A stretch of 64,000 nt of DNA from Gemmatimonadota bacterium. Lineage in GTDB: Bacteria; Gemmatimonadota; Gemmatimonadetes; Palauibacterales; Palauibacteraceae. Position 1 is the stretch's first letter, and each line of letters starts with the position of its first letter. The translations under genes and the position numbers were made by a program. The notes beneath the pieces were generated by a model. That model was not told the DNA's origin. It made no database searches and saw only the letters and a list, made by a program, of their open reading frames with translations. The stretch lies in the NCBI GenBank assembly GCA_049668445.1, contig JBATJK010000179.1, positions 10,567 through 74,566 of the forward strand, read 5' to 3'. Positions 26,825-56,858 of this stretch are shown piece after piece.

Positions 26825-27014
26825 ATCTCACTGCCGGCGCTATCCGGCCTGTCGAATCTCTCGGGGTGGCCGTCCGGTCACGGGGGGACCCCGGCCGGCG
26901 GCGCTCGATTGCCAAGCGGGGGATTATGGGACGGCCCTTCCCCGGTCACAAGCTGAAGGTCATGCAGGTCATGCCTTGCTCCAGCCCGACCTCACGCCTA
27001 GGCTAGGCTCTCAT

Positions 27015-27650
27015 ATGAAACAGACCACGGAAATCGACGGTTGGCTGAGCCCCAGTGTGGCCCTCGTACTTCTCGAGTCTCTGCGCGACGTGGACACTCC
27101 GCCGGAGGTGCTCGAGGACGAGGCGTTTCACATCAGCCTTCCGCGGCGTCTCGGGCTGAGCGACGTCATCGACGGGCAGATGCGACGCTACGCCGACATG
27201 CGGAAGCGAAGGCGGCAACTGGAAGCCAGTGAGTTCCTGGATCTGCTTCGGCTCATCGCTCGCCGGCCTGACGCTCGCATGGTCTTTGAGGCCGCCGGGG
27301 ACCGGCTGGGGTCGGAGTATGTCTCGCGGACCCCGCGCGCCGCGGGCTTCGCGCGGCGGCTCTCACCGGCGGGATTCCGACGGCGATCGCTTCTGCGCCA
27401 TCTGCGGCGGGTCGCAGAATCTCTCAGCCCGGGCAGTGCGATCCGGTCCGACCGGACGGACCCGTCGATTTCGGTGGCGCATTGTCTTCCAGCTGTGGCC
27501 GATGGCACCGGGTCGGCCTGCGGGATCATCACGGCTGCGTTTACGGCGTGCGCTCACGGGCTGGGCGAATCGACGCCGGTTCGTCACCCGCGCTGCGAGA
27601 GCCGGGGAGACGACCAGTGCCTGTGGGAGGTCGCACCGCTGCAGAACTAG
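27015..27650 (+). CDS. Hypothetical protein (possibly V4R-like Cys-containing C-terminus)
   Basis: ORF with a coding-like pattern beginning MKQTTEIDGW; C-terminal Cys/His cluster (CAHGLG...HPRCESRGDDQC). Family uncertain. Confidence 0.4.
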   Translation: MKQTTEIDGWLSPSVALVLLESLRDVDTPPEVLEDEAFHISLPRRLGLSDVIDGQMRRYADMRKRRRQLEASEFLDLLRLIARRPDARMVFEAAGDRLGSEYVSRTPRAAGFARRLSPAGFRRRSLLRHLRRVAESLSPGSAIRSDRTDPSISVAHCLPAVADGTGSACGIITAAFTACAHGLGESTPVRHPRCESRGDDQCLWEVAPLQN

Positions 27651-28988: not shown

Positions 28989-30428
28989 GTGCGCGACTCC
29001 GACCTCCTTCGCTGCTCCTTCCGTCGGACTGTGAGAGCCAGCCTGGCCGTGCTGGGGCTTGCCGCTTTTGCGGGCGGCTGTGTGGACGAAGACACCGTGT
29101 ACAACGATCGGCCGTTCGGCGACGATCCGCCGGCCTCAGCCGGTGGCATGCTGGGATACGTGCAGGGACAGGCGGGAGAGCCGACGTGCGCCCAATGTCA
29201 CGCCACGCCGAGCGCGAGCTGGACCACGACGGCGCACGCCGGTGCGTGGAACACTCTTCAAGACAGCGGGCACGCGCAGGAATTCTGCGAGGCCTGCCAC
29301 GCGGTCAGTCAGCTCGGCAACGCGGCGACCGAGCCCGCCGGCTGGACGTCCACCGGGGATTCGAGGTACGTGGACGTGCAGTGCGAGGCGTGCCACGGGG
29401 CCGGTGAAACGCACGTGGCCAATCCGGAAGCCTCTCAGCCGCTGCCCTCGCTCGCGGTTGGCGCCGACCTTACGAACGGCTGCGGTGAGTGCCACAACGG
29501 CACGCACCATCCGTTCGTCGAGCAGTGGTCGTTGTCGAAGCACTCGGAGGTAGTCACTTTCGCCGCCAGTCGGCTCGAGTGCGCCGGCTGCCACCGGGGC
29601 CAGGGGACGCTGCTCGCATGGGGGGTCCGCTCCAACTACCTGGAGCGGGACTCTGAGGAGCCCCTCGCGGTCGTATGCGGCGTCTGTCATTCGATGCACG
29701 ACAACACGTTCGAGGGTCAGCTCAGGTTCCCGGTCCAGACGCCGGACGTCGAGGTTCACCTTTGCGCGCGGTGCCATAACCGGCGTTCCGTCGCGGATCC
29801 CAACTCCAGTCACGGCCTCGAGCCGCACGCTCCGGAGACGGCACACCTGGTGGGCGAGTCCGGCTGGGTACCCCCCGGATCGGGACTGGCCCTTGGTTCG
29901 ATCAGCATGACGCACGGATCGCCAAGCAATGAGAAGCTGTGCGCAACCTGCCACGTGGCCATGTACACGGTCACGGATCAGGCCACGGGGGAATTCGAGT
30001 TCCAGGCCGTTGGGCACACGTTCGAGTCAATCCCCTGCGTGGACGAGAGCGGTATCCCGAACGGCGAAGCGGACTGCGCCGTCGATGCCGGTGCCCGATC
30101 GTTCGCTGGCTGCGTGACCTCGGGCTGTCACTCGACCGCAGAATCCGCCGCCGCACTCCTGAACCTCCGGGCCGACAACATCGCGCTTCAGGTGGCGGTC
30201 CTGCTCGACCTGCTGGAGCAGGTGGATCCCAATCTCGATGAACCGGGTGGTGAGATCGACGCCACCGTCGCGACGTTCACCGTCGCCGAGGGCGGCTTCT
30301 TCAACTACAGCCTGGCGACCCATGGAGGCGACGTGTACGGGTCCACGACGCACAACGCTCCGTGGATGAGGGCGTTGCTGGAGGCCAGCATCACAGCGGT
30401 GCAGGACGAGTATGGAGTGAGTCCGTAA
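28989..30428 (+). CDS. Multiheme c-type cytochrome lipoprotein (8 canonical CxxCH plus one CxxxxCH)
   Basis: GTG start at 28989 after an AGGAGA RBS; lipobox LAVLGLAAFAGGC; heme motifs CAQCH, CEACH (x2), CGECH, CAGCH, CGVCH, CARCH, CATCH and an atypical CVTSGCH. Confidence 0.8.
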   Translation: MRDSDLLRCSFRRTVRASLAVLGLAAFAGGCVDEDTVYNDRPFGDDPPASAGGMLGYVQGQAGEPTCAQCHATPSASWTTTAHAGAWNTLQDSGHAQEFCEACHAVSQLGNAATEPAGWTSTGDSRYVDVQCEACHGAGETHVANPEASQPLPSLAVGADLTNGCGECHNGTHHPFVEQWSLSKHSEVVTFAASRLECAGCHRGQGTLLAWGVRSNYLERDSEEPLAVVCGVCHSMHDNTFEGQLRFPVQTPDVEVHLCARCHNRRSVADPNSSHGLEPHAPETAHLVGESGWVPPGSGLALGSISMTHGSPSNEKLCATCHVAMYTVTDQATGEFEFQAVGHTFESIPCVDESGIPNGEADCAVDAGARSFAGCVTSGCHSTAESAAALLNLRADNIALQVAVLLDLLEQVDPNLDEPGGEIDATVATFTVAEGGFFNYSLATHGGDVYGSTTHNAPWMRALLEASITAVQDEYGVSP

Positions 30429-30481: not shown

Positions 30482-30530
30482 AAACGAAAGACCCGCGGAA
30501 GCCACTGGCCTCCGCGGGTCTCTTGTTTCG
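30482..30530. terminator. Bidirectional rho-independent terminator between convergent cytochrome genes
   Basis: GACCCGCGGA-agccactggcc-TCCGCGGGTC stem-loop flanked by an A-tract (caaacgaaa) and a T-tract (tcttgttt). Confidence 0.6.
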
Positions 30531-30579: not shown

Positions 30580-30969
30580 TCAGCCGGCCGCCACGTGGCA
30601 CATGGTGCACGTGGCGTCTGCCCGCCCTTCGTGGCTGGCGGGAGCCGCAGGCATCCCTTCCATCGCACCCGAATGGCACATGGCGCAGGCCTCACGTCCA
30701 GCGATCTCGTGCGGAGTCGCCGAAGCGGCACCGGTCTGCATCTCCGAGTCGGCGGCATGGCACAACAGGCACGTGTCCAGCTCTCGACCCTCGTGGTCCG
30801 CCGGGTTGGCCGGGATCCCTTCCATGGCACCGGAATGGCACATGGTACAGTTCTCCTTGCCCGCCAGGTCGTGCGACACGACCGTCGGCTTCTCCTGCGC
30901 AAACGCTGGAGCCGCGGCAAGCGCCACGAACAGCGCCGTACCGGCAGCAATCGACATTAGACGGTTCAT
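30580..30969 (-). CDS. Small periplasmic tetraheme c-type cytochrome with an internal tandem duplication
   Basis: Signal peptide MNRLMSIAAGTALFVALAAAPAFA; four CxxCH (CTMCH, CLLCH, CAMCH, CTMCH); two 33-aa repeats CxMCHSGAMEG(I/M)PAxPAxHEGR...C..CH, also visible as a DNA-level repeat. GGAGA RBS. Confidence 0.75.
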   Translation of the reverse strand: MNRLMSIAAGTALFVALAAAPAFAQEKPTVVSHDLAGKENCTMCHSGAMEGIPANPADHEGRELDTCLLCHAADSEMQTGAASATPHEIAGREACAMCHSGAMEGMPAAPASHEGRADATCTMCHVAAG

Positions 30970-31243
30970 ACGAGCTCTCCTTTGAGTTTGCTTACCTTCC
31001 CGCGGCCGCTCTCTACCGCGTAAAACAAGCACGTATATGATAGTTTACACCGGTCGCTATCGCGAGTCTCACCCTATTGGACACCAGTGCAACGTCCACT
31101 GTTTGAATCCGTGGCGACTCGCATGTTCCGCCGCGCCGTTGACGAAACCGAAGTAGCCACAACGCAACGGTTTCGCGGCACGAAAGGTGCTGTGACTGAT
31201 GGGTGAAGCGCTCCCCTCGCTTCACATACATCGGAGACTCGTC

Positions 31244-33250
31244 ATGCTCCTCCAACGACCCCCAATCGCTCGTTGGCTGATGATGCTCACGTGCGTCCTC
31301 CTGTCGGCCTCGCCGTTCGCTCCGCCGCTTCGCGCCCAGGAGACGACCGACGATCCAAACCGCACCTGCTACATGTGCCACGGCGACCCTGAGAACTTCG
31401 CGAACCGGGAGGACGGCCAGCGACTCATCGTGACACAGGACGAATTCGCCGGCTCAGTGCACGGTGGTTTCGGGTTCGCGTGCACGACGTGCCACCGCGA
31501 CTTCGCCTTTCCGCACCCGGAGGAATACGTGCCCGTGCGGTGCGGCGCCTGTCACGGTTCCGAGGACCGGCAGTACGGCGAGAGCGTGCACGGATATGCC
31601 CTGGCGCGTGCCAACGAACGAGCTCCGACGTGCGCCGGGTGTCACGGAAAGCACGACATACGCCGAAGCGACGACCCGGAAAGCCACACCTATCACACGC
31701 GCGTCGCGGAGACCTGCACGGACTGCCACAGCACCGCCGGACTGCTCACGGACCAGTATCTGAAGCTGCCGTCGCCCGCTGCTCAGTTCGCTCAGTCCGT
31801 CCACGGCGAAGCCGGTGAGGCCGGCGACATGGGCGCCGCGACGTGTACAGACTGTCACGGCGTTCACGATCTCAGGGGACACAACGACCCCCTCTCGCGC
31901 ATCAATCGGTTGAACGTCTCTGAAACCTGCGGTGCCTGCCACCAGGAGATCACCACCGACTACGACCGGTCGATTCACGGGCGGGCGCTGGCGGCCGGAA
32001 TCGGCGACAGCCCCACGTGCACCGATTGCCACGGCGAGCACCTGATCCTGCATCCGTCCGACCCGGACGCCGGAACGCACGCCAATCACATGGCGGCTGA
32101 CCTGTGCGGCGATTGCCACGACGATCCGGTGATCGTGGCCAAGTACAGTCTTCGAGACGACGTGGTCCACTCGTACGCCGACAGCTACCACGGGTGGGCG
32201 ACCGGACGAAACCACGAGCATGCGGCCACGTGCGTGAGTTGCCATACGGCTCACCTGGTGCTGCCGACGGCCGACCCGGAGTCGTCGGTCTCCGAGGCGA
32301 ACGTGGTCGCCACGTGCCAGCAATGCCACGAAGGAGCGAGCGCGGAGTTCGCCGCCTCGTACGACCACGCCGCGGCTTCCGCGGCCACGAACAAGGGCCG
32401 ACGGATCGTCACCGCCCTCTACATCGGACTCATCATCGTGGTGATCGGAGGCATGGCACTCCACAACGCGCTCATTCTCAACTACTACCTGGTCGAGAAG
32501 CGACGAAGGGAACGGCAGGAGCGCGGCGTCGTGCGGTTCGACAAGATCCAGATCGTGCAGCATATGACGCTGGCCGTGTCATTCATCCTGCTCGTGATCA
32601 CCGGGTTCGCCCTGCGCTACCCTGATACCCTATGGGTGAAGTGGACGGGACTCACCTTCCTCAGCGAGCCGGTTCGGTCGTGGAGCCACCGAATCCTCGG
32701 AGTCGGCCTGATCCTGTTCTCGGTCGTTCATGTCCTCTACATCCTGTTCGCCCGCCGCGGACGCGACGAGTTCAAGGCCATGCTGCCGAACTTCCAGGAT
32801 CTGAAGGACTTCATCGACAACATGCGCTTCCACACGTGGGGCACGAAGCGCAAACCGCGCTTCGGACGCTACGACTACACGCAGAAGGCGGAGTACTGGG
32901 CCCTCGTTTGGGGTACCGCCCTGATGGCCATCACCGGGCTGGTACTATGGTTCCCGGTTCTGGCCACCACGTGGGCTCCGGCCTGGGTGGTCTCCATCTC
33001 GGAGACGATCCACTTCTACGAGGCCTGGCTGGCGATGCTGGCGATCGTGGTGTGGCACTTCTTCTTCGTCATGGTGCACCCGGATGTCTATCCGATGAGC
33101 TGGATCTGGCTCACCGGGAAGATGCCCGAGCACGAGGTGCAGGCCGTACACGGCCGCTGGTACGATGAGGAAGTCCAGGACATGCTCGACGCGCTTCCGC
33201 CGGGTGAAACGACGGCGGGGCTACCGGACCGTCGAGCCGACGCAGGCTGA
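31244..33250 (+). CDS. Fusion protein: periplasmic 11-heme c-type cytochrome + C-terminal diheme cytochrome b membrane domain (HydC/FdnI/Ni-hydrogenase cyt b-like; CbcL-like)
   Basis: Signal peptide; 11 CxxCH motifs; C-terminal five TM helices with conserved His ligands (ALHNAL, VQHMTL, HRILG...VVHVLY, WHFFFVMVHP). GGAGA RBS before the Met at 31244. Confidence 0.8.
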   Translation: MLLQRPPIARWLMMLTCVLLSASPFAPPLRAQETTDDPNRTCYMCHGDPENFANREDGQRLIVTQDEFAGSVHGGFGFACTTCHRDFAFPHPEEYVPVRCGACHGSEDRQYGESVHGYALARANERAPTCAGCHGKHDIRRSDDPESHTYHTRVAETCTDCHSTAGLLTDQYLKLPSPAAQFAQSVHGEAGEAGDMGAATCTDCHGVHDLRGHNDPLSRINRLNVSETCGACHQEITTDYDRSIHGRALAAGIGDSPTCTDCHGEHLILHPSDPDAGTHANHMAADLCGDCHDDPVIVAKYSLRDDVVHSYADSYHGWATGRNHEHAATCVSCHTAHLVLPTADPESSVSEANVVATCQQCHEGASAEFAASYDHAAASAATNKGRRIVTALYIGLIIVVIGGMALHNALILNYYLVEKRRRERQERGVVRFDKIQIVQHMTLAVSFILLVITGFALRYPDTLWVKWTGLTFLSEPVRSWSHRILGVGLILFSVVHVLYILFARRGRDEFKAMLPNFQDLKDFIDNMRFHTWGTKRKPRFGRYDYTQKAEYWALVWGTALMAITGLVLWFPVLATTWAPAWVVSISETIHFYEAWLAMLAIVVWHFFFVMVHPDVYPMSWIWLTGKMPEHEVQAVHGRWYDEEVQDMLDALPPGETTAGLPDRRADAG

Positions 33251-33274
33251 TACCGGGCAGGCCGATTGCCCCCC

Positions 33275-33308
33275 GGGTCGGGCAACCCCCGACCCACGGG
33301 TTGTTGTG
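33275..33308 (+). terminator. Putative intrinsic terminator after the first cytochrome c/b fusion gene
   Basis: GGGTCGGG-caacc-CCCGACCC hairpin followed by GTTGTTGTG; a lower-GC 200-bp intergenic region follows, presumably the promoter of the next gene. Confidence 0.4.
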
Positions 33309-33511
33309 CCCACGAGCGTTGTGTCATTCTGACCCATTCCGAGTCCTTATCACGGTTCGGCAAGACTTGGACACACGCATATCTCGTTGTTCGGTGTAGC
33401 TTTGCCGAATTGTGTCCAGTTCTTGCAGGTTGTTCGTGCGGCGTTGCGGGTCTCAGCATTCGGGGTCCGCTCCGCCCTCGTGTAGGGACGACCACTCCTT
33501 CCGGAGGTCCA

Positions 33512-36322
33512 ATGCGGATTCGGAAGTTCAGAATAGCGAAGCGACTGACCCCGCTGGCCGCTGCGGCCACGCTCTTGATATTGGCGGCCCCTGCCGCCGC
33601 GCAGGAAGTCAACTGTCTGATGTGTCACGAGAACCCGGCGTTCTTCCAGAGCCAGGAGAACGGCGAGCGCCTCGTGGTCACCCAGGAATCGCTGTCGGGC
33701 TCGGTACATGGCAGCCTTCGTTGCCAGGACTGTCACGCGGGACTCGAGTTCCCACACCAGGCAGACGCCCCGGCGCCCAGTTGCGGGCAGTGCCACGGGA
33801 GACAGTCGCGCCAACACCAGCAGTCGCTGCACGGGCAGGCCGCCGCCCGCGGCGATGCGCTCGCACCGGAATGCGAGGACTGTCACGGCACGCACGAGAT
33901 CCTGTCGAGTCGGGAGTTGGCTTCGCCGACATCGGTGATGAACATCCCGATCCTGTGCGGCGAATGTCACCAGGAAGGCACGGAGGTATCGGAGCGAATA
34001 GACATTCCGCAGGACAGCATCCTGCACAACTACTCCCTGTCCATCCACGGGGCCGGCCTGTTCGAGCGCGGCCTGTCGGTGACCGCCGTATGCACTTCCT
34101 GCCACACGTCGCACTTCATCCTTCCGCACACGGATCCCCGCTCGAGCATCCACGTGGACAACGTCGCCGGGACGTGCATGGCATGTCACGCGCGGATCGA
34201 GGAAGTGCACACGCAGGTGATCGAAGGGCGACTGTGGGAAGAACAGCCCCATATGATCCCGGCTTGCGTGGACTGTCATGAGCCGCACGAGATTCGTCGC
34301 GTGTTCTACGATGCGGGGGTCGCGAACGCGGACTGCCTGGCCTGCCACTCCGATCCGGAACTCATGGGCACGGATTTCGACGGAAACAGCGTCTCGATGT
34401 TCGTGGACGAGGGCCCTTACAGCCTGGGGGCGCATCAGGGTACGACGTGCGCGCAGTGCCACACCGACGTGAGCGTCGCGTACGAGGAGCGTCCTTGCGA
34501 GACCCTCTCCTCGGCGGTCGACTGCGCGATCTGCCACGCCGGACCGGTCTCCGAGTACCAGGCCAGCAGCCACGGCACACTGGCCGCGGAGGGTGTGACC
34601 GACGCTCCCACGTGCCTGGATTGCCACGAGAAACACGCCACGGGGGACAACGACAATCCGACCTCGCCGACGTATGCCCGGAACGTCCCCGAGCTGTGCT
34701 CTACCTGCCACCGCGAAGGGGAAGCGGCGGCCCAACGCATCCAGCGCGAGGGCGCCGACATCGTCGCGGGCTACGAGATGAGCATCCACGGCAAGGGACT
34801 GCTTGAGAGCGGACTCGTGGTCACGGCCACCTGCAGCGACTGCCACGGACCTCACTCGGAGCTTCCGGCCAGCGACTCGACTTCGAGGGTCAATCCGAAC
34901 AACGTCGCCGCCACCTGCGGACAGTGTCACCACGGGATCGAGGAGACGTTCCGCGAGAGCGTCCACTATCCGGAGAACGGGCTCTACACGGCCGAAAGCG
35001 AGCACCAGTATCCTACCTGCGAGGACTGCCACACCTCGCACACGATCGGTCGGACGGACCGGGATGATTTCCGGATGCTCATGATGAGCCAGTGCGGGCG
35101 CTGCCACGAGGACGAGTCCGAGACGTTCTTCGAGACGTACCACGGCAAGGTCTCACGCCTGGGCGGAGCGCGGGCGGCCAAGTGCTATGACTGCCACGGA
35201 ACACACAACATCCTCCCGAATTCGGAGGTTGGTTCGACCCTCAGTCGTGACAACATCCTGGAGACGTGCGCGCAGTGTCACCCGGCCGCGAACGAGAAGT
35301 TCACGGGTTACCTGACGCATGCCACGCACCACGATCCGGACAAGTACCCGTGGCTCTTTCTCGCCTTCTGGGCCATGACGGGCCTGTTGGTCAGCGTGCT
35401 CACTTTCTCGCTCATCCACACCGGCGCATGGCTGTACCGCCTGTGGCGCGAGCCGGAGCACTGGAAGGGCCACGTCGAGGCCGTGGGCGAGGAGCGAAAG
35501 CAGCTCTATCGCCGGTTCACACAACGGCAGCGGATCATGCACCTGGTGATGTTGCTCAGTTTCATGCTGCTGGCCGCGACCGGCATGGCTCTCAAGTTCG
35601 CGTGGATGGGTTGGGCCAAGCTGTTCTCGCGAATGGTCGGCGGATTCGAGGCGATGGGCATCCTGCACCGCCTGGGGGCCGTGGCGCTGATTACCCTTTT
35701 CATCGTTCACCTGGTGGACGTGCGCAAACAGAAGCGCTCGGCCGGGCAGACGTGGAAGGAGTACATCTTCTCCCGAGACTCGCTGATGTTCAACAAGAAC
35801 GACGGACGCGAGTTCGTGGCCTCCATCAAGTGGTTCTTCGGTAAGGGAGAACGACCGAACTACGGCCGCTTCACCTACTGGGAGAAGTTCGATTACTTCG
35901 CCGTCTTCTGGGGGATGTTCATCATCGGCTCCACTGGACTGTTCCTGTGGTTCCCGGAGCTCTTCACGACCGTGCTGCCCGGGTGGTTCGTGAACGTGGC
36001 CACGATCATCCACAGCGATGAGGCGCTGCTGGCAGTGGCGTTCATCTTCACCATCCACTTCTTCAACACGCACTTCCGCCTGGACAAGTTCCCCATGGAT
36101 CCCGTGATCTTCACGGGCCGGGTTCCACTGGAGGAGCTGAAGCGCGACAAGCCGATGGAGTACGAGCGCATGAAGGCGGAAGGAAAGCTGGAAGAGCGGC
36201 TGGTCGATCCGCTTCCGAAGGAATTCGAGACTACCGTTCGCATCTTCGGCTTCACGATGCTCGCGATCGGGCTCACGATCGTGGGGCTCATTCTGTACAC
36301 GATGCTGTTCGGCTACAGATAG
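33512..36322 (+). CDS. Fusion protein: periplasmic 19-heme c-type cytochrome + C-terminal diheme cytochrome b membrane domain (paralog of 31244..33250)
   Basis: GGAGG RBS; signal peptide MRIRKFRIAKRLTPLAAAATLLILAAPAAAQE; 19 CxxCH; C-terminal TM domain with His ligands. N-terminal region is homologous to the upstream paralog (CLMCHENPAFFQSQENGERLVVTQES... vs CYMCHGDPENFANREDGQRLIVTQDE...). Confidence 0.8.
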   Translation: MRIRKFRIAKRLTPLAAAATLLILAAPAAAQEVNCLMCHENPAFFQSQENGERLVVTQESLSGSVHGSLRCQDCHAGLEFPHQADAPAPSCGQCHGRQSRQHQQSLHGQAAARGDALAPECEDCHGTHEILSSRELASPTSVMNIPILCGECHQEGTEVSERIDIPQDSILHNYSLSIHGAGLFERGLSVTAVCTSCHTSHFILPHTDPRSSIHVDNVAGTCMACHARIEEVHTQVIEGRLWEEQPHMIPACVDCHEPHEIRRVFYDAGVANADCLACHSDPELMGTDFDGNSVSMFVDEGPYSLGAHQGTTCAQCHTDVSVAYEERPCETLSSAVDCAICHAGPVSEYQASSHGTLAAEGVTDAPTCLDCHEKHATGDNDNPTSPTYARNVPELCSTCHREGEAAAQRIQREGADIVAGYEMSIHGKGLLESGLVVTATCSDCHGPHSELPASDSTSRVNPNNVAATCGQCHHGIEETFRESVHYPENGLYTAESEHQYPTCEDCHTSHTIGRTDRDDFRMLMMSQCGRCHEDESETFFETYHGKVSRLGGARAAKCYDCHGTHNILPNSEVGSTLSRDNILETCAQCHPAANEKFTGYLTHATHHDPDKYPWLFLAFWAMTGLLVSVLTFSLIHTGAWLYRLWREPEHWKGHVEAVGEERKQLYRRFTQRQRIMHLVMLLSFMLLAATGMALKFAWMGWAKLFSRMVGGFEAMGILHRLGAVALITLFIVHLVDVRKQKRSAGQTWKEYIFSRDSLMFNKNDGREFVASIKWFFGKGERPNYGRFTYWEKFDYFAVFWGMFIIGSTGLFLWFPELFTTVLPGWFVNVATIIHSDEALLAVAFIFTIHFFNTHFRLDKFPMDPVIFTGRVPLEELKRDKPMEYERMKAEGKLEERLVDPLPKEFETTVRIFGFTMLAIGLTIVGLILYTMLFGYR

Positions 36323-36470
36323 CCGATCACACAGCGGGGGCGGGCGCTTCCGGCTCCGCATTCTCGAGACCGGCCGGCGGGCTTGATCCAGTCCGCCCGG
36401 CCGGCCATGTTTCATGGAGCCGTCCAGGAAGCTCCGTGACAGGTAACCTCAAGCGCGTCGGAGCAGGACC

Positions 36471-37925
36471 ATGACTGTCCATCGCCGGCCGTTCTTCTCG
36501 TTTCTCGCGTGCGCCATGGTGTGGCTGCCCTCTGCGGCCCAGGCCCAGGGCATACGCGGAGACGTGAGACTCAACTGGGGCTGGATGCAGCTCCAACCGT
36601 TCGCACAGGACTCGGTCCCCGAGGGCGATGTCTCGGGGTCGGGCCTCCAGCGGCAATTGGCGAACGGGACCGTGGTGTCGTGCATCGAGGGCGATTACTG
36701 CCGCTGGTACGAGAACAACGGCCAGCGCCAGGACATCATGCCCTTCACGCAGGACCTGCGATTCGCCGGGTGGACCGGCGTCCAGGGTCTTTCGTTCCAC
36801 GGGCAGATGCGCACGCGCCTGGGCAGTGACGACCTGTGGCCGCGCACCGATCAGAAGTTCGACCTCCTCACGGGCTACCTGAGCTACAATCGCTCGGCTT
36901 TCCAGATCAAAGCCGGCCGGATGTACAGGGCATCGGGACTCGGCTACTACAACTTCGACGGCGCGTCCGCCGTGTGGCGTGGACTCGGATGGCTGTGGGT
37001 CGAGGGATATGCCGGCTGGAGCCTGGCGCGTGGCGTCAACGCACCGCGGAACGGCAGCCTGTACCAGGATGCCGATCTCCTGGCCACGGACCGACGCGGC
37101 TATCTCTTTGGTGGCGAGCTCGGCTTCCGTGGCGGCAAGGTGTTCTCCGGCTCGGCGACCTACCAGCGCGAGCTCCGCACCGATGAGCTGGCCCTCTATT
37201 CGGAGAGGGCAGCGGTAGACCTCAGGGCCCTCGTGGGCGGCTGGGCATTCGATGGCGGAGCCAGCTACGACTTCGCGTACGACCAGCTCAACGACGCTCG
37301 AGTCCGGATCACGACGCCGCAGGTGCTGGGGATCAAGTTTGCCGCTCAGGCCAGGCACTACACCCCGTTCTTCGACTACTGGACCATCTGGAGCGCCTTC
37401 TCTCCCGTCGGCTTCAACGAGGGGCGCCTTTCAGGCACCTGGACCTCCAGGAGCCTCCCGCTGCTCGTCGAGCTCGGCGGGGCGTACCGCGAGTACGAAG
37501 ACACGAACGCGGGCCCCTCGAACACCACCATCCGCAAAGACGGCTACCGTGGCTTCGGCCGGATCTACTGGAGCCCGGACAAGTGGTACGTGGACGCCCG
37601 CTACCGCGCGGAAGACGGATTCGGAGGCTCCCGGTACGGTGGCGACCTGGTCCTGGGCCGCTACCTGGCCACGGGCTCTGCCTCCTACGTGGCCCTGCGA
37701 GGCACCGCGACGGAGACCCTGTACGAGTTCCGAGAGGGTGAGCGTTACGTGGTTGGCGGCGCCGTCGAAGGATCGTACGACATCACCAAGGCCAACCTGA
37801 CGCTCGACGCCAGCCTCGGTTTCTACCAGATCGAAGACAAGAACCGGCCCCTGGCCGATACCTGGACAGAAGGGCGCGCGAGCGTAGGATTGCGCTGGCG
37901 CTTCAACACTGGAGGTACCCGATGA
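36471..37925 (+). CDS. Putative outer-membrane beta-barrel (porin-like) protein
   Basis: Signal peptide ending AAQAQG; alternating amphipathic beta-strand pattern rich in Y/G/W throughout; aromatic residue near the C-terminus (RWRF); stop overlaps the start of the downstream cytochrome gene. Confidence 0.55.
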   Translation: MTVHRRPFFSFLACAMVWLPSAAQAQGIRGDVRLNWGWMQLQPFAQDSVPEGDVSGSGLQRQLANGTVVSCIEGDYCRWYENNGQRQDIMPFTQDLRFAGWTGVQGLSFHGQMRTRLGSDDLWPRTDQKFDLLTGYLSYNRSAFQIKAGRMYRASGLGYYNFDGASAVWRGLGWLWVEGYAGWSLARGVNAPRNGSLYQDADLLATDRRGYLFGGELGFRGGKVFSGSATYQRELRTDELALYSERAAVDLRALVGGWAFDGGASYDFAYDQLNDARVRITTPQVLGIKFAAQARHYTPFFDYWTIWSAFSPVGFNEGRLSGTWTSRSLPLLVELGGAYREYEDTNAGPSNTTIRKDGYRGFGRIYWSPDKWYVDARYRAEDGFGGSRYGGDLVLGRYLATGSASYVALRGTATETLYEFREGERYVVGGAVEGSYDITKANLTLDASLGFYQIEDKNRPLADTWTEGRASVGLRWRFNTGGTR

Positions 37926-38869
37926 GGCGGCTCGCTTACCTGGGCGCCCTCGTTCTGACGGTCGGCGCCGGAGCGCTGTTCGCGGCCTCCCGTGGATCTT
38001 TCGACTTCCCGCACGAAAAACACGCGGCCCTTGGTGGGGCCGGGTGTGAGAGTTGCCACGCGGGCATCTACTCCGGAGACGCCGCGAGCAACGTCTCGGT
38101 TGACCCGGCACTGTGCTCGGGATGCCATAACGGACAGGCGTTCCCCGAGGTGGGGTACACGGGATACAAACCGCAGGAAAGTGGCCTGAAGTTCCAGCAT
38201 GCCACGCACCCGAAGCTCGGCTGCCAGAACTGCCACGGCGTTCCCGGCGGCGAGGGCGACATGGCCGTTCAGGCCGCATCGGGAGACACGTGCCTGGCCT
38301 GCCACGGCAACGGGGCGACCGACCATTTCGAGGTCGGCATCAACCCGTGCGAGACCTGTCACTACGATCCGGCGCCCGGGCACACGCCTGACTTCATGAC
38401 GCAGCATGCGACGGCGGCAGCAGCGGGACTCCCGAACTGCACGCAGTGCCACAGGGAAACGTTCTGCGTCGACTGCCACGACGGCCCGACGAACCCGGGT
38501 ACGCAGTACCATCCGGCGAACTTCGTCACCCGCCACAGCGCGGAGTCGTGGGCCGCTCCGATGGAGTGCTCCGAGTGCCATTCGAGGGAGGTCTTCTGCC
38601 GCGACTGCCACTCGAACCAGGGAGTCGCGCAGGATGGCAGCCAGAACGGTGGCTACCACGACGGAGTGGCAAACTGGCTGCAGCAGCACGGCGCGGCCGC
38701 GCGGCAGGGCATGGAAAGTTGCACCACCTGCCACCAGCAGACCGAGTGCCTGGCCTGTCACTCGGCCAGGGAAGGATGGCGCGTGAATCCGCACGGACCG
38801 GACTTCGATCCCCAGCGGGCGTCCGACCGCAGCACGCAGTCGTGCGCAATCTGTCACACGGGATACTGA
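37922..38869 (+). CDS. 12-heme c-type cytochrome (secreted), translationally coupled to the beta-barrel gene
   Basis: Signal peptide MRRLAYLGALVLTVGAGALFAASRG; 12 CxxCH in 315 aa; ATGA start/stop overlap with the upstream gene. Confidence 0.8.
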   Translation: MRRLAYLGALVLTVGAGALFAASRGSFDFPHEKHAALGGAGCESCHAGIYSGDAASNVSVDPALCSGCHNGQAFPEVGYTGYKPQESGLKFQHATHPKLGCQNCHGVPGGEGDMAVQAASGDTCLACHGNGATDHFEVGINPCETCHYDPAPGHTPDFMTQHATAAAAGLPNCTQCHRETFCVDCHDGPTNPGTQYHPANFVTRHSAESWAAPMECSECHSREVFCRDCHSNQGVAQDGSQNGGYHDGVANWLQQHGAAARQGMESCTTCHQQTECLACHSAREGWRVNPHGPDFDPQRASDRSTQSCAICHTGY

Positions 38870-55712: not shown

Positions 55713-56858
55713 TTATCTCAGGACTGCTGCGATACCGGTCTCCGTCGGAATCTTCGCGCCCGGTAGTACCAGCGCCCTGCCACCGTGCTGGATCGTCACC
55801 TCCGCCAGTTCGTCGAGCAGGTCGACCGCGTCACCGCCCGGATCCGTACCGCCTTCGCCGATGATCTCGATGTCGCCCGACGATCGGTCGAACCGGCCCC
55901 ACACCGTACGTCCCTTCTCCGTCAGCAGAAGCCTGATCCGACCCGCGACCGCGAGTTGGGCGATGGCCGCCAGCTCAGACTCCGTCTTGCCCCGGCCATA
56001 GGATCTTTCCCACAGCTCGAGCGCGATGTCCAGCTTGTCCTCCACGGATTTCTGAGCGATCGGCCAGGCTGCCGCGTGGATTCTGCCCTCGTCCCATCCG
56101 GAAACGTTTCCGACGATGCCCTCGTCGACCAGGTTCTCCAGCTTGCTCACGCTGTGGTAGATCGGATGGTAGTAGTCCACCGCGGCGAGGATGATCGGGC
56201 CGATTTCATCTGCCAGGAGTTCCCGGACGCCCGCGTCCACGGCTCGGAAGAACTTCTCCAGCTCCTGCTTCGTGTCGTCCTTGCCGGCCCCGTGCCCGTG
56301 GAAGACAGGTGCCGAGCCTCGCCCGCGGGGACTGCGGAGATTGAGGCGGTCCACCACCACCTCGGCTCCGAGAGCTTCCTGCAGACTGCCGGGAACCGTG
56401 GCCAGGTCGACCGGTGCCATCTCTGAGATGGAACCCTCCCACAAGCGGACTTCCTTCTGGGTCACGGAGAGGACCCAGAAGCGTTCGGGCGCCTGCAGGA
56501 ACTCGATCAGGGGCCTGGTATGAAAGGTCGGTCCCACGACGACCATGTCGGGCATCTGCACCGGCAGGCGATAGAGGCGTCCGAAGTCGCGGGAAGCAAA
56601 CAGAGCCAGGCCATCGGCCTGGTGGCGCCAGAAGTCCTGGTCTCCAATCAGGGCCTCGAGCGGGGCCAGGACGTCGTCGACACCGTCCGCGCCATCATCC
56701 GAGAGGATTCCCCTCGCCTCGTCGATGGCGGCCCTCAGACGCAGGGGTTGAGCGGCTACCTCGGCTCCCCTGCGGTGAGTTTCCATGTAGATCGAGACGG
56801 CGGGAGCCGTGTCGATCTGAAACAGTTCTTTGAGTTGATCTCTTCCGAAGTAATCCAC
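55713..56858 (-). CDS. Hypothetical protein; possible bacterial eRF1-like (baeRF) family member
   Basis: 381-aa ORF with a coding-like pattern; central region HGHGAGKDDTKQELEKFFRAVD loosely reminiscent of eRF1/Pelota-like domains. Family assignment tentative. Confidence 0.45.
   Translation of the reverse strand: MDYFGRDQLKELFQIDTAPAVSIYMETHRRGAEVAAQPLRLRAAIDEARGILSDDGADGVDDVLAPLEALIGDQDFWRHQADGLALFASRDFGRLYRLPVQMPDMVVVGPTFHTRPLIEFLQAPERFWVLSVTQKEVRLWEGSISEMAPVDLATVPGSLQEALGAEVVVDRLNLRSPRGRGSAPVFHGHGAGKDDTKQELEKFFRAVDAGVRELLADEIGPIILAAVDYYHPIYHSVSKLENLVDEGIVGNVSGWDEGRIHAAAWPIAQKSVEDKLDIALELWERSYGRGKTESELAAIAQLAVAGRIRLLLTEKGRTVWGRFDRSSGDIEIIGEGGTDPGGDAVDLLDELAEVTIQHGGRALVLPGAKIPTETGIAAVLR

Follow-up and report, generated by a model that had tools for sequence, protein, structure and literature searches.

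A secreted tetraheme cytochrome of two diheme units linked to a candidate extracellular electron-transfer module in uncultured Gemmatimonadota

Small periplasmic multiheme carriers that accompany porin-cytochrome systems are already known, as is the tandem reuse of heme modules. PpcA of Geobacter has been proposed as the periplasmic link between inner-membrane cytochromes of the CbcL/ImcH type and outer-membrane porin-cytochrome conduits, and STC of Shewanella is a soluble cytochrome that carries electrons in the periplasm and links an inner-membrane quinol dehydrogenase with the MtrAB-type barrel-cytochrome complex (PMC6295460). Proteins of the CbcL/MtoC/MtrH architecture carry 3 to 23 CX2CH motifs and typically six transmembrane helices; they occur in both Fe(III) reducers and Fe(II) oxidisers, one of them in Gemmatimonadetes (PMC6295460). 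The Gemmatimonadota are abundant in soils and sediments and poorly represented in culture, and much of what is held about their respiration is inferred. Here, we describe a small tetraheme c-type cytochrome encoded in a 64,000-nucleotide stretch of a Gemmatimonadota genome (GenBank assembly GCA_049668445.1, contig JBATJK010000179.1, positions 10,567 to 74,566, forward strand), called the window below, and argue that it is probably, though by no means certainly, the soluble periplasmic electron shuttle of a porin-cytochrome module conserved in this phylum.

The pre-protein contains four CxxCH motifs (at C41, C67, C95, and C121 of its 129 residues) and exactly eight histidines, four inside those motifs and four others at positions 33, 59, 87, and 113. 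Every heme site reads H-x7-CxxCH, and the sites are spaced by 26, 28, and 26 residues. In an alignment of 52 relatives, the invariant columns were all eight cysteines, all eight histidines, and G37. The four invariant histidines outside the motifs equal in number the distal ligands that four hemes need, which fits an all-bis-histidine tetraheme cytochrome; counted in this way, the hemes are most likely all bis-histidine ligated.

The four sites form two 41-residue diheme units that are identical at 27 of 41 residues. Local alignment of the two halves scored 162, compared with 25.8 ± 5.5 for 2,000 shuffles of the second half (z, ~25). A preliminary description, made from the sequence and a list of its open reading frames (ORFs), had announced a small secreted tetraheme c-type cytochrome built of two diheme repeats; the motifs, the signal peptide, and the repeat bear this out, and the two protein copies that it wrote out, CTMCHSGAMEGIPANPADHEGRELDTCLLCH and CAMCHSGAMEGMPAAPASHEGRADATCTMCH, are both present in a repeat that extends to 41 amino acids (aa). 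It had also taken the duplication to be visible in both protein and DNA, of which the protein half stands and the DNA half does not. The DNA of the two copies is identical at 82 of 123 positions (67%), and third codon positions agree at 18 of 41, so the DNA similarity is imposed by the conserved protein and gives no sign of recent duplication. Recent duplication or gene conversion was rejected for the window genome because third positions of the two copies agree at a near-random level. In locus L006, the halves are 88% identical as protein, yet their third codon positions are only moderately similar (26/42).

The two units of one protein tend to change together. Mean unit identity was 0.72 within the same protein, 0.64 between same-position halves of different proteins, and 0.62 between halves at different positions. 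Unit lengths co-vary (39/39 residues in 67 proteins, 40/40 in 24, and mixed in 8), and half 1 of the 40-residue clade is closer to half 2 of other members of that clade (0.74) than to half 1 of the 39-residue clade (0.59). Judged from these identities, co-evolution of the units is the signature of either concerted evolution or independent duplications; whichever applies, its age shows in L006, where synonymous sites have drifted apart although the halves share 88% protein identity. The co-evolution could reflect a symmetric function in which the cytochrome docks with two partners.

The gene runs from an ATG (30967-30969) to a TGA (30580-30582), and its GC content at third codon positions (0.77) is like that of other window genes. 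The signal peptide ends in ...AAPAFA, an AxA cleavage site, and a lipobox cysteine is absent. In the AlphaFold2 (AF2) model, residues 2 to 23 of the pre-protein form a single helix, and the N-terminal region is conserved in type and variable in sequence across the aligned relatives. The mature protein has 105 aa, 10.7 kDa before heme attachment, and an isoelectric point (pI) of 5.0, with 15 Asp and Glu residues versus 5 Lys and Arg. The AF2 model is confident (predicted local distance difference test [pLDDT], 88.2) and has short helices only, which lie at the CxxCH sites and recall those of small multiheme cytochromes. A longer ORF initiated by GTG at 31032 was dismissed as the gene, since homologues begin at the equivalent methionine and the ribosome-binding site precedes the ATG. 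Overlapping plus-strand ORFs were dismissed because conservation is confined to the minus-strand frame. Rfam and tRNA scans of the whole 64-kb window returned no RNA genes.

A word-indexed search yielded 110 relatives, nearly all 127 to 135 aa long and, where labelled, all labelled hypothetical. A locus scan with one genome per species gave 80 loci, of which 75 are labelled Gemmatimonadota, Gemmatimonadales, or Gemmatimonadaceae, 4 "uncultured bacterium," and 1 Akkermansiaceae. Literature searches found no description of the small tetraheme family. The family is real, unnamed, and without a solved relative, and it is almost confined to uncultured Gemmatimonadota.

Linkage was assessed by searching the 80 loci with the window proteins (tblastn), and loci with at least 6 kb on each side were treated as well flanked (n = 37). 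The genes concerned, referred to as module genes, encode two CbcL-like fusion proteins, an outer-membrane barrel, a 12-heme cytochrome, and a lipoprotein cytochrome. At least one was found in the available flanks of 69 of the 80 loci and in 34 of the 37 well-flanked loci; this tight linkage is the outcome of a check proposed in the preliminary description, a search for homologues that co-occur with the neighbouring multiheme genes. Among well-flanked loci, the CbcL-like genes were found in 29 of 37, the barrel and the 12-heme genes in 26 each, and the lipoprotein cytochrome gene in 19; the last lies within 8 kb on either side of the small gene in 31 of all 80 loci. The commonest order, on one strand, is cbcL1-cbcL2-barrel-12-heme-small gene, and the small gene follows the 12-heme gene by less than 600 bp on the same strand in 26 loci. 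The single locus labelled Akkermansiaceae (L079, contig CAXMRU010000218.1) has the lipoprotein cytochrome and small genes arranged as in the window (82% and 63% identity) and is probably a mis-binned Gemmatimonadota contig.

In the window, the genes around the cytochrome (Table 1) keep this company in a different arrangement. The convergent neighbour has a signal peptide ending in ...FAGGC, its start having been inferred from an 84%-identical orthologue in L001, and matches PF22113 (MtrC/MtrF domain II/IV) with 38 bits (cut-off, 30). Its nine heme motifs and its signal peptide are those of the convergent 9-heme lipoprotein announced earlier, and the terminator that the two genes were said to share has its counterpart in a terminator-like hairpin: this hairpin between them folds at -40.4 and -39.9 kcal/mol on the two strands (z = -4.9 and -4.4) and is flanked by T-rich runs on both sides. 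A partial match of residues 75 to 187 of the neighbour to the NCBIfam model "UshA-like (seleno)protein" is far below threshold (58.8 versus 275 bits).

Table 1. Features of the tetraheme cytochrome gene and its surroundings (window coordinates)
Feature	Position	Strand	Description	Basis
Tetraheme cytochrome gene	30580..30969	-	129-aa pre-protein, two diheme units	ORF and translation
Ribosome-binding site AGGAG	30977..30981	-	7-nt spacer to ATG	Read from sequence
Sec signal peptide	30898..30969	-	Residues 1-24, MNRLMSIAAGTALFVALAAAPAFA, then QEK	Read from sequence
Diheme unit 1	30751..30873	-	Residues 33-73; H33-x7-C41xxC44H45 ... H59-x7-C67xxC70H71	
Linker	30712..30750	-	Residues 74-86, ADSEMQTGAASAT; length conserved, sequence variable in family	
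Diheme unit 2	30589..30711	-	Residues 87-127; H87-x7-C95xxC98H99 ... H113-x7-C121xxC124H125	
Multiheme cytochrome, probable lipoprotein	28989..30428	+	~480 aa; convergent; 8 CxxCH and 1 Cx4CH	
Bidirectional terminator-like hairpin	30487..30523	.	17-bp stem, 3-nt loop, T-rich tails on both strands	
CbcL-like fusion 1	31199..33250	+	Divergent; 11 CxxCH, C-terminal HydC/FdnI-type cytochrome b domain	
CbcL-like fusion 2	33506..36322	+	19 CxxCH and cytochrome b domain; Ni_hydr_CYTB, 40 bits	
Outer-membrane beta-barrel, candidate porin	36471..37925	+	484 aa; no heme motif	AF2 and Foldseek
Secreted 12-heme cytochrome	37922..38869	+	315 aa; 4-nt overlap with barrel gene	

On the other side, positions 31199 to 38869 (plus strand) hold a compact candidate extracellular electron-transfer module that is conserved in dozens of Gemmatimonadota metagenome-assembled genomes (MAGs) and of which literature searches found no description. 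Both of its fusion proteins have the CbcL/MtoC/MtrH architecture, an N-terminal multi-CxxCH domain followed by a cytochrome b domain of the HydC/FdnI type; fusion 1 matches Pfam Ni_hydr_CYTB with 77 bits and TIGR01583 with 62 bits, the latter below its cut-off. The 484-aa protein has no Pfam or NCBIfam match. Its AF2 model (48 homologues; pLDDT, 85.9) shows a signal helix and ~22 to 24 long β-strands, and Foldseek matched it, with low TM-scores, to outer-membrane barrels only (MOMP, the FimD and PapC ushers, OmpK36, and, at rank 35, MtrB [6r2q_B]). By its model, the protein is a large outer-membrane β-barrel; MtrB is one of several barrel matches, and no specific kinship is claimed.

In two close relatives, L001 (4768-9741) and L088 (418-2115), a four-gene block encoding a 148-aa Rieske-like protein, a 412-aa cytochrome b, and 9-heme and 21-heme cytochromes lies between the small gene and cbcL1. 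The corresponding position of the window is 229 bp of intergenic DNA only (30970-31198). Farther from the module, a 224-aa protein without a Pfam match is encoded at 26976-27650 (plus strand), between the leucyl-tRNA synthetase and cation-efflux genes, and L001 has a 211-aa gene without a Pfam match in the same position. Unrelated to the cytochrome, a 381-aa protein that matches the baeRF families (bacterial archaeo-eukaryotic release-factor-like; PF18845, 122 bits) is encoded at 55713-56858 (minus strand).

The diheme unit is also used outside the small cytochromes. Among 1.84 billion representative proteins, a profile search matched 1,481 at E ≤ 1e-3, 537 at E ≤ 1e-10, and 110 at E ≤ 1e-30, and many of the best matches are not small. 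Counted with the pattern H-x7-CxxCH-x(8-20)-H-x7-CxxCH, the unit is used 1 to ~18 times in at least hundreds of the 1,481 matched proteins: 3 to 8 tandem units occur in proteins of 165 to 950 aa, and up to 17 or 18 in proteins of 2,700 to 3,600 aa bearing 93 to 131 CxxCH motifs. The units in these proteins are plainly homologous, as P0111 illustrates (PHDLEGRENCLMCH…DHIGRTSDMCPKCH). One multi-unit cluster is labelled Anaerolineae, and another multi-unit relative sits among system II cytochrome maturation genes and genes for surface-type multiheme proteins. The giant proteins P0132 (2,703 aa, 93 CxxCH), P0185 (3,949 aa, 120 CxxCH), and P0235 (3,592 aa, 131 CxxCH) owe their profile matches to numerous related H-x7-CxxCH sites in tandem, of which P0235 has as many as 77.

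Single-unit diheme versions of 73 to 78 aa, with a signal peptide and the usual C terminus, are encoded in L088 (2375-2602, at the orthologous locus), L089 (768-1004), and L090 (798-1034), and one such version was assembled independently from two samples. Their apparent junction lies inside a stretch that is identical between the two repeats, which fits unequal recombination or assembly collapse, the latter being possible for some of them.

Among described families, the window protein matches Pfam Cytochrome_C7 (PF14522) with 27.9 bits (cut-off, 24.8), as do 50 of the 52 relatives at E ≤ 1e-3, and Cytochrom_CIII (PF02085) with 25.3 bits (cut-off, 22.9; residues 23 to 125 on profile positions 15 to 101 of 101), as do 32 of the 52 at the same E value. 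Cytochrom_c3_2 (PF14537) stayed under its cut-off (20.0 versus 25 bits). Paired_CXXCH_1 (PF09699/TIGR01905) gave 15.8 bits against a cut-off of 20.6, with residues 35 to 74 on profile positions 3 to 39 of 41; 35 of the 52 relatives match it at E ≤ 1e-3. It scored 23.7 bits on relative P0143 and 26.6 to 37.1 bits on multi-unit relatives, matching every multi-unit relative that was compared. The multi-unit relatives match the same Pfam families above the cut-offs. DHC (PF09626; 12.6 versus 22.2 bits) and c554 (PF13435; 11.4 versus 20.8 bits) were not matched, and no NCBIfam model reached its cut-off (TIGR04257 [nanowire_3heme], 18.1 versus 40 bits; TmcA, 15.7 versus 114 bits). NapB was not matched in Pfam or NCBIfam, and its chains appeared in the PDB profile search at E values of 0.4 (3ml1_B) and 0.87 (1ogy_B).

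Other PDB hits were weak: NrfB (2ozy) at E = 0.004 by single sequence, OcwA (6i5b) at E = 2e-5 and GSU1996 (3ov0) at E = 2e-3, the best of the profile hits, and the STC-type domains of flavocytochrome c3 (1d4d, 1d4c, 1qo8) at E values of ~0.4 to 1.1. NrfB, OcwA, and GSU1996, all weak hits, were rejected as family assignments; the similarity to OcwA and GSU1996 is at the level of motifs only. PF23145 (Zf_2nd_IFT121; 36.4 bits, cut-off 25; 41 of the 52 relatives) was rejected as a false positive, because it is a eukaryotic zinc-finger model matching a CxxCH-rich (Cys/His-rich) stretch. This false positive from an intraflagellar-transport model is systematic and is also stored in precomputed annotations.

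By profile score, the tetraheme protein belongs to the class III/paired-CxxCH multiheme superfamily. The class III and c7 matches, the alignment of the unit to Paired_CXXCH_1, and the reuse of the module elsewhere make it a new subfamily or variant inside that superfamily and no new kind of carrier, as far as profiles can place it. The preliminary description, which saw no obvious match to PpcA-type c7 or NapB, was right about NapB and is not supported as it stood about c7. No confident match to a known diheme family (NapB or cytochrome c4/c554) emerged to displace its view of the protein, and its proposal of a new periplasmic carrier family holds to the extent that the family is unnamed and unsolved; the part that would place the family outside known ones is not supported, given the c7/class III matches, the Paired_CXXCH_1 alignment, and the occurrence of the unit in other proteins.

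As a shuttle, the protein would correspond in function to PpcA of Geobacter or STC of Shewanella. With the shuttles of porin-cytochrome systems it shares secretion without a lipobox and linkage to CbcL-like genes and to a barrel-cytochrome pair. After Sec export, four hemes would be attached by the cytochrome c maturation system, and the protein would stay soluble in the periplasm. Its closely spaced, probably low-potential bis-histidine hemes would take up electrons at the periplasmic heme domains of the two inner-membrane CbcL-like quinol oxidoreductases and pass them to the 12-heme cytochrome inside the outer-membrane barrel, or carry them in reverse; beyond the 12-heme cytochrome, exchange with the surface multiheme lipoprotein would follow.

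Several observations weigh against the shuttle. The near-invariant methionines M49 and M103 could serve as heme ligands instead. A Foldseek search with the modelled structure, a check that the preliminary description had proposed, matched nothing in the PDB at E ≤ 10, which leaves the fold class unconfirmed. All 80 loci come from MAGs, with no isolate among them, and module genes were not found in the flanks of 10 loci, several of them on short contigs. In roughly a quarter to a third of the loci, the small gene is also accompanied by a Rieske/cytochrome b block, which comes with two more multiheme genes: Rieske and cytochrome b genes are no farther than 8 kb away in 24 of the 80 loci (13 to 15 of the 37 well flanked) and directly adjoin the small gene in L001, L003, and L088. 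One divergent member lies beside a cupredoxin gene, away from the module. In L091 (5824-8200), a five-unit relative, P0116 (399 aa, 11 CxxCH), comes directly after a split cytochrome b, the N- and C-terminal parts of which are separate genes. P0116 may serve a b6-type complex as its c-type subunit, and with such a multi-unit relative directly after cytochrome b, the primary partner of the family could be a bc-type complex. The small cytochrome would then accept electrons from a Rieske/cytochrome b complex as a c-type protein, either soluble or loosely attached to it, in the role of cytochrome c1 or c, sending electrons on to terminal oxidases or reductases, and its linkage to the porin-cytochrome genes would be secondary. 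We think this unlikely: the window keeps the small gene while the Rieske/cytochrome b block is absent from its whole 64 kb, and the small gene is linked to the CbcL-like, barrel, and 12-heme genes about twice as often (26 to 29 versus 13 to 15 of 37). The succession of barrel, 12-heme, and small genes on one strand with a short gap, seen in 26 loci, is typical of the subunits of one complex, and the diheme unit recurs in long, wire-like multi-unit proteins; both suit a cytochrome permanently docked on the 12-heme protein as a periplasmic extension of the outer-membrane conduit, with a line of hemes that would thereby reach further towards the inner membrane. In the window and in close relatives, however, the small gene lies away from the 12-heme gene and is transcribed alone, with a divergent promoter region on one side and a terminator of its own on the other, and the small, acidic protein with a signal peptide only resembles known diffusible carriers, which leaves permanent docking improbable and the diffusible shuttle as our preferred reading.

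Whatever its partners, the protein might in identity be a plain divergent tetraheme cytochrome c3, with the fold and heme core of the Desulfovibrio proteins and a repeat without special meaning. The Cytochrom_CIII score over residues 23 to 125 and the four hemes in ~105 residues speak for this, as does the H-x7-CxxCH site, which is also found at heme I of Desulfovibrio c3. Yet no c3 chain was among the Foldseek results at E ≤ 10, despite the many deposited c3 structures, phmmer and profile searches reached c3 chains only at E values of ~1, and the TmcA model scored far under its cut-off. The strict 26/28/26 periodicity of four identical sites is unlike the c3 pattern, and hydrogenase or sulfate-respiration genes are not in the gene context. 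On this separate question, we give a plain c3 only a slim chance.

The small cytochrome marks a conserved module that resembles a complete electron route between the quinone pool and the cell exterior, and such a route would bear on iron and manganese cycling. A broader and more doubtful proposal, which we advance tentatively, is that the 41-aa unit is a self-contained heme-wire block of readily changing copy number (1, 2, and up to ~18 units, the last in proteins with >100 hemes) and that its two-unit form is the dedicated shuttle of an undescribed conduit widespread in uncultured Gemmatimonadota. That conduit would comprise the two CbcL-like proteins, the 22- to 24-strand barrel, the 12-heme cytochrome, and the 9-heme lipoprotein. 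With one heme per 26 to 28 residues and identical sites, the compact design is a convenient model for building and lengthening multiheme "wires." New here are an unnamed family, its very regular two-module design, relatives with one, two, and many units, the co-evolution of the units, and the conserved module; the finding overturns no current ideas and adds one more phylum and one more module to a theme already known.

Compared with described carriers, the window protein is, like the PpcA-family c7 cytochromes of Geobacter, small, secreted, and multiheme, with motifs of the bis-histidine type. It differs from them in its heme content (four in 105 aa, compared with three in ~70), in a clear internal tandem repeat, and no significant similarity to solved c7 chains, and it is acidic, unlike PpcA, which is basic. 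STC (CctA) of Shewanella likewise holds four hemes in ~90 to 105 residues and is a periplasmic carrier; to our knowledge, it is without a tandem repeat. Tetraheme cytochrome c3 has the same heme count and size, and its Pfam profile is nearly fully covered with a score just above the cut-off, whereas the window protein has CxxCH at each of its four sites, always with the H-x7 spacing, and the genomic partners differ. The 41-aa unit aligns end to end with the 41-position Paired_CXXCH_1 model, to which the family adds two invariant upstream histidines per unit and a conserved GAMEG/P-x-P loop. GSU1996 (PDB 3OV0), whose module is a triheme c7-type domain, is built on the same plan, with small heme modules repeated along a chain; GSU1996 and OcwA (PDB 6I5B) are much larger proteins made of different modules.

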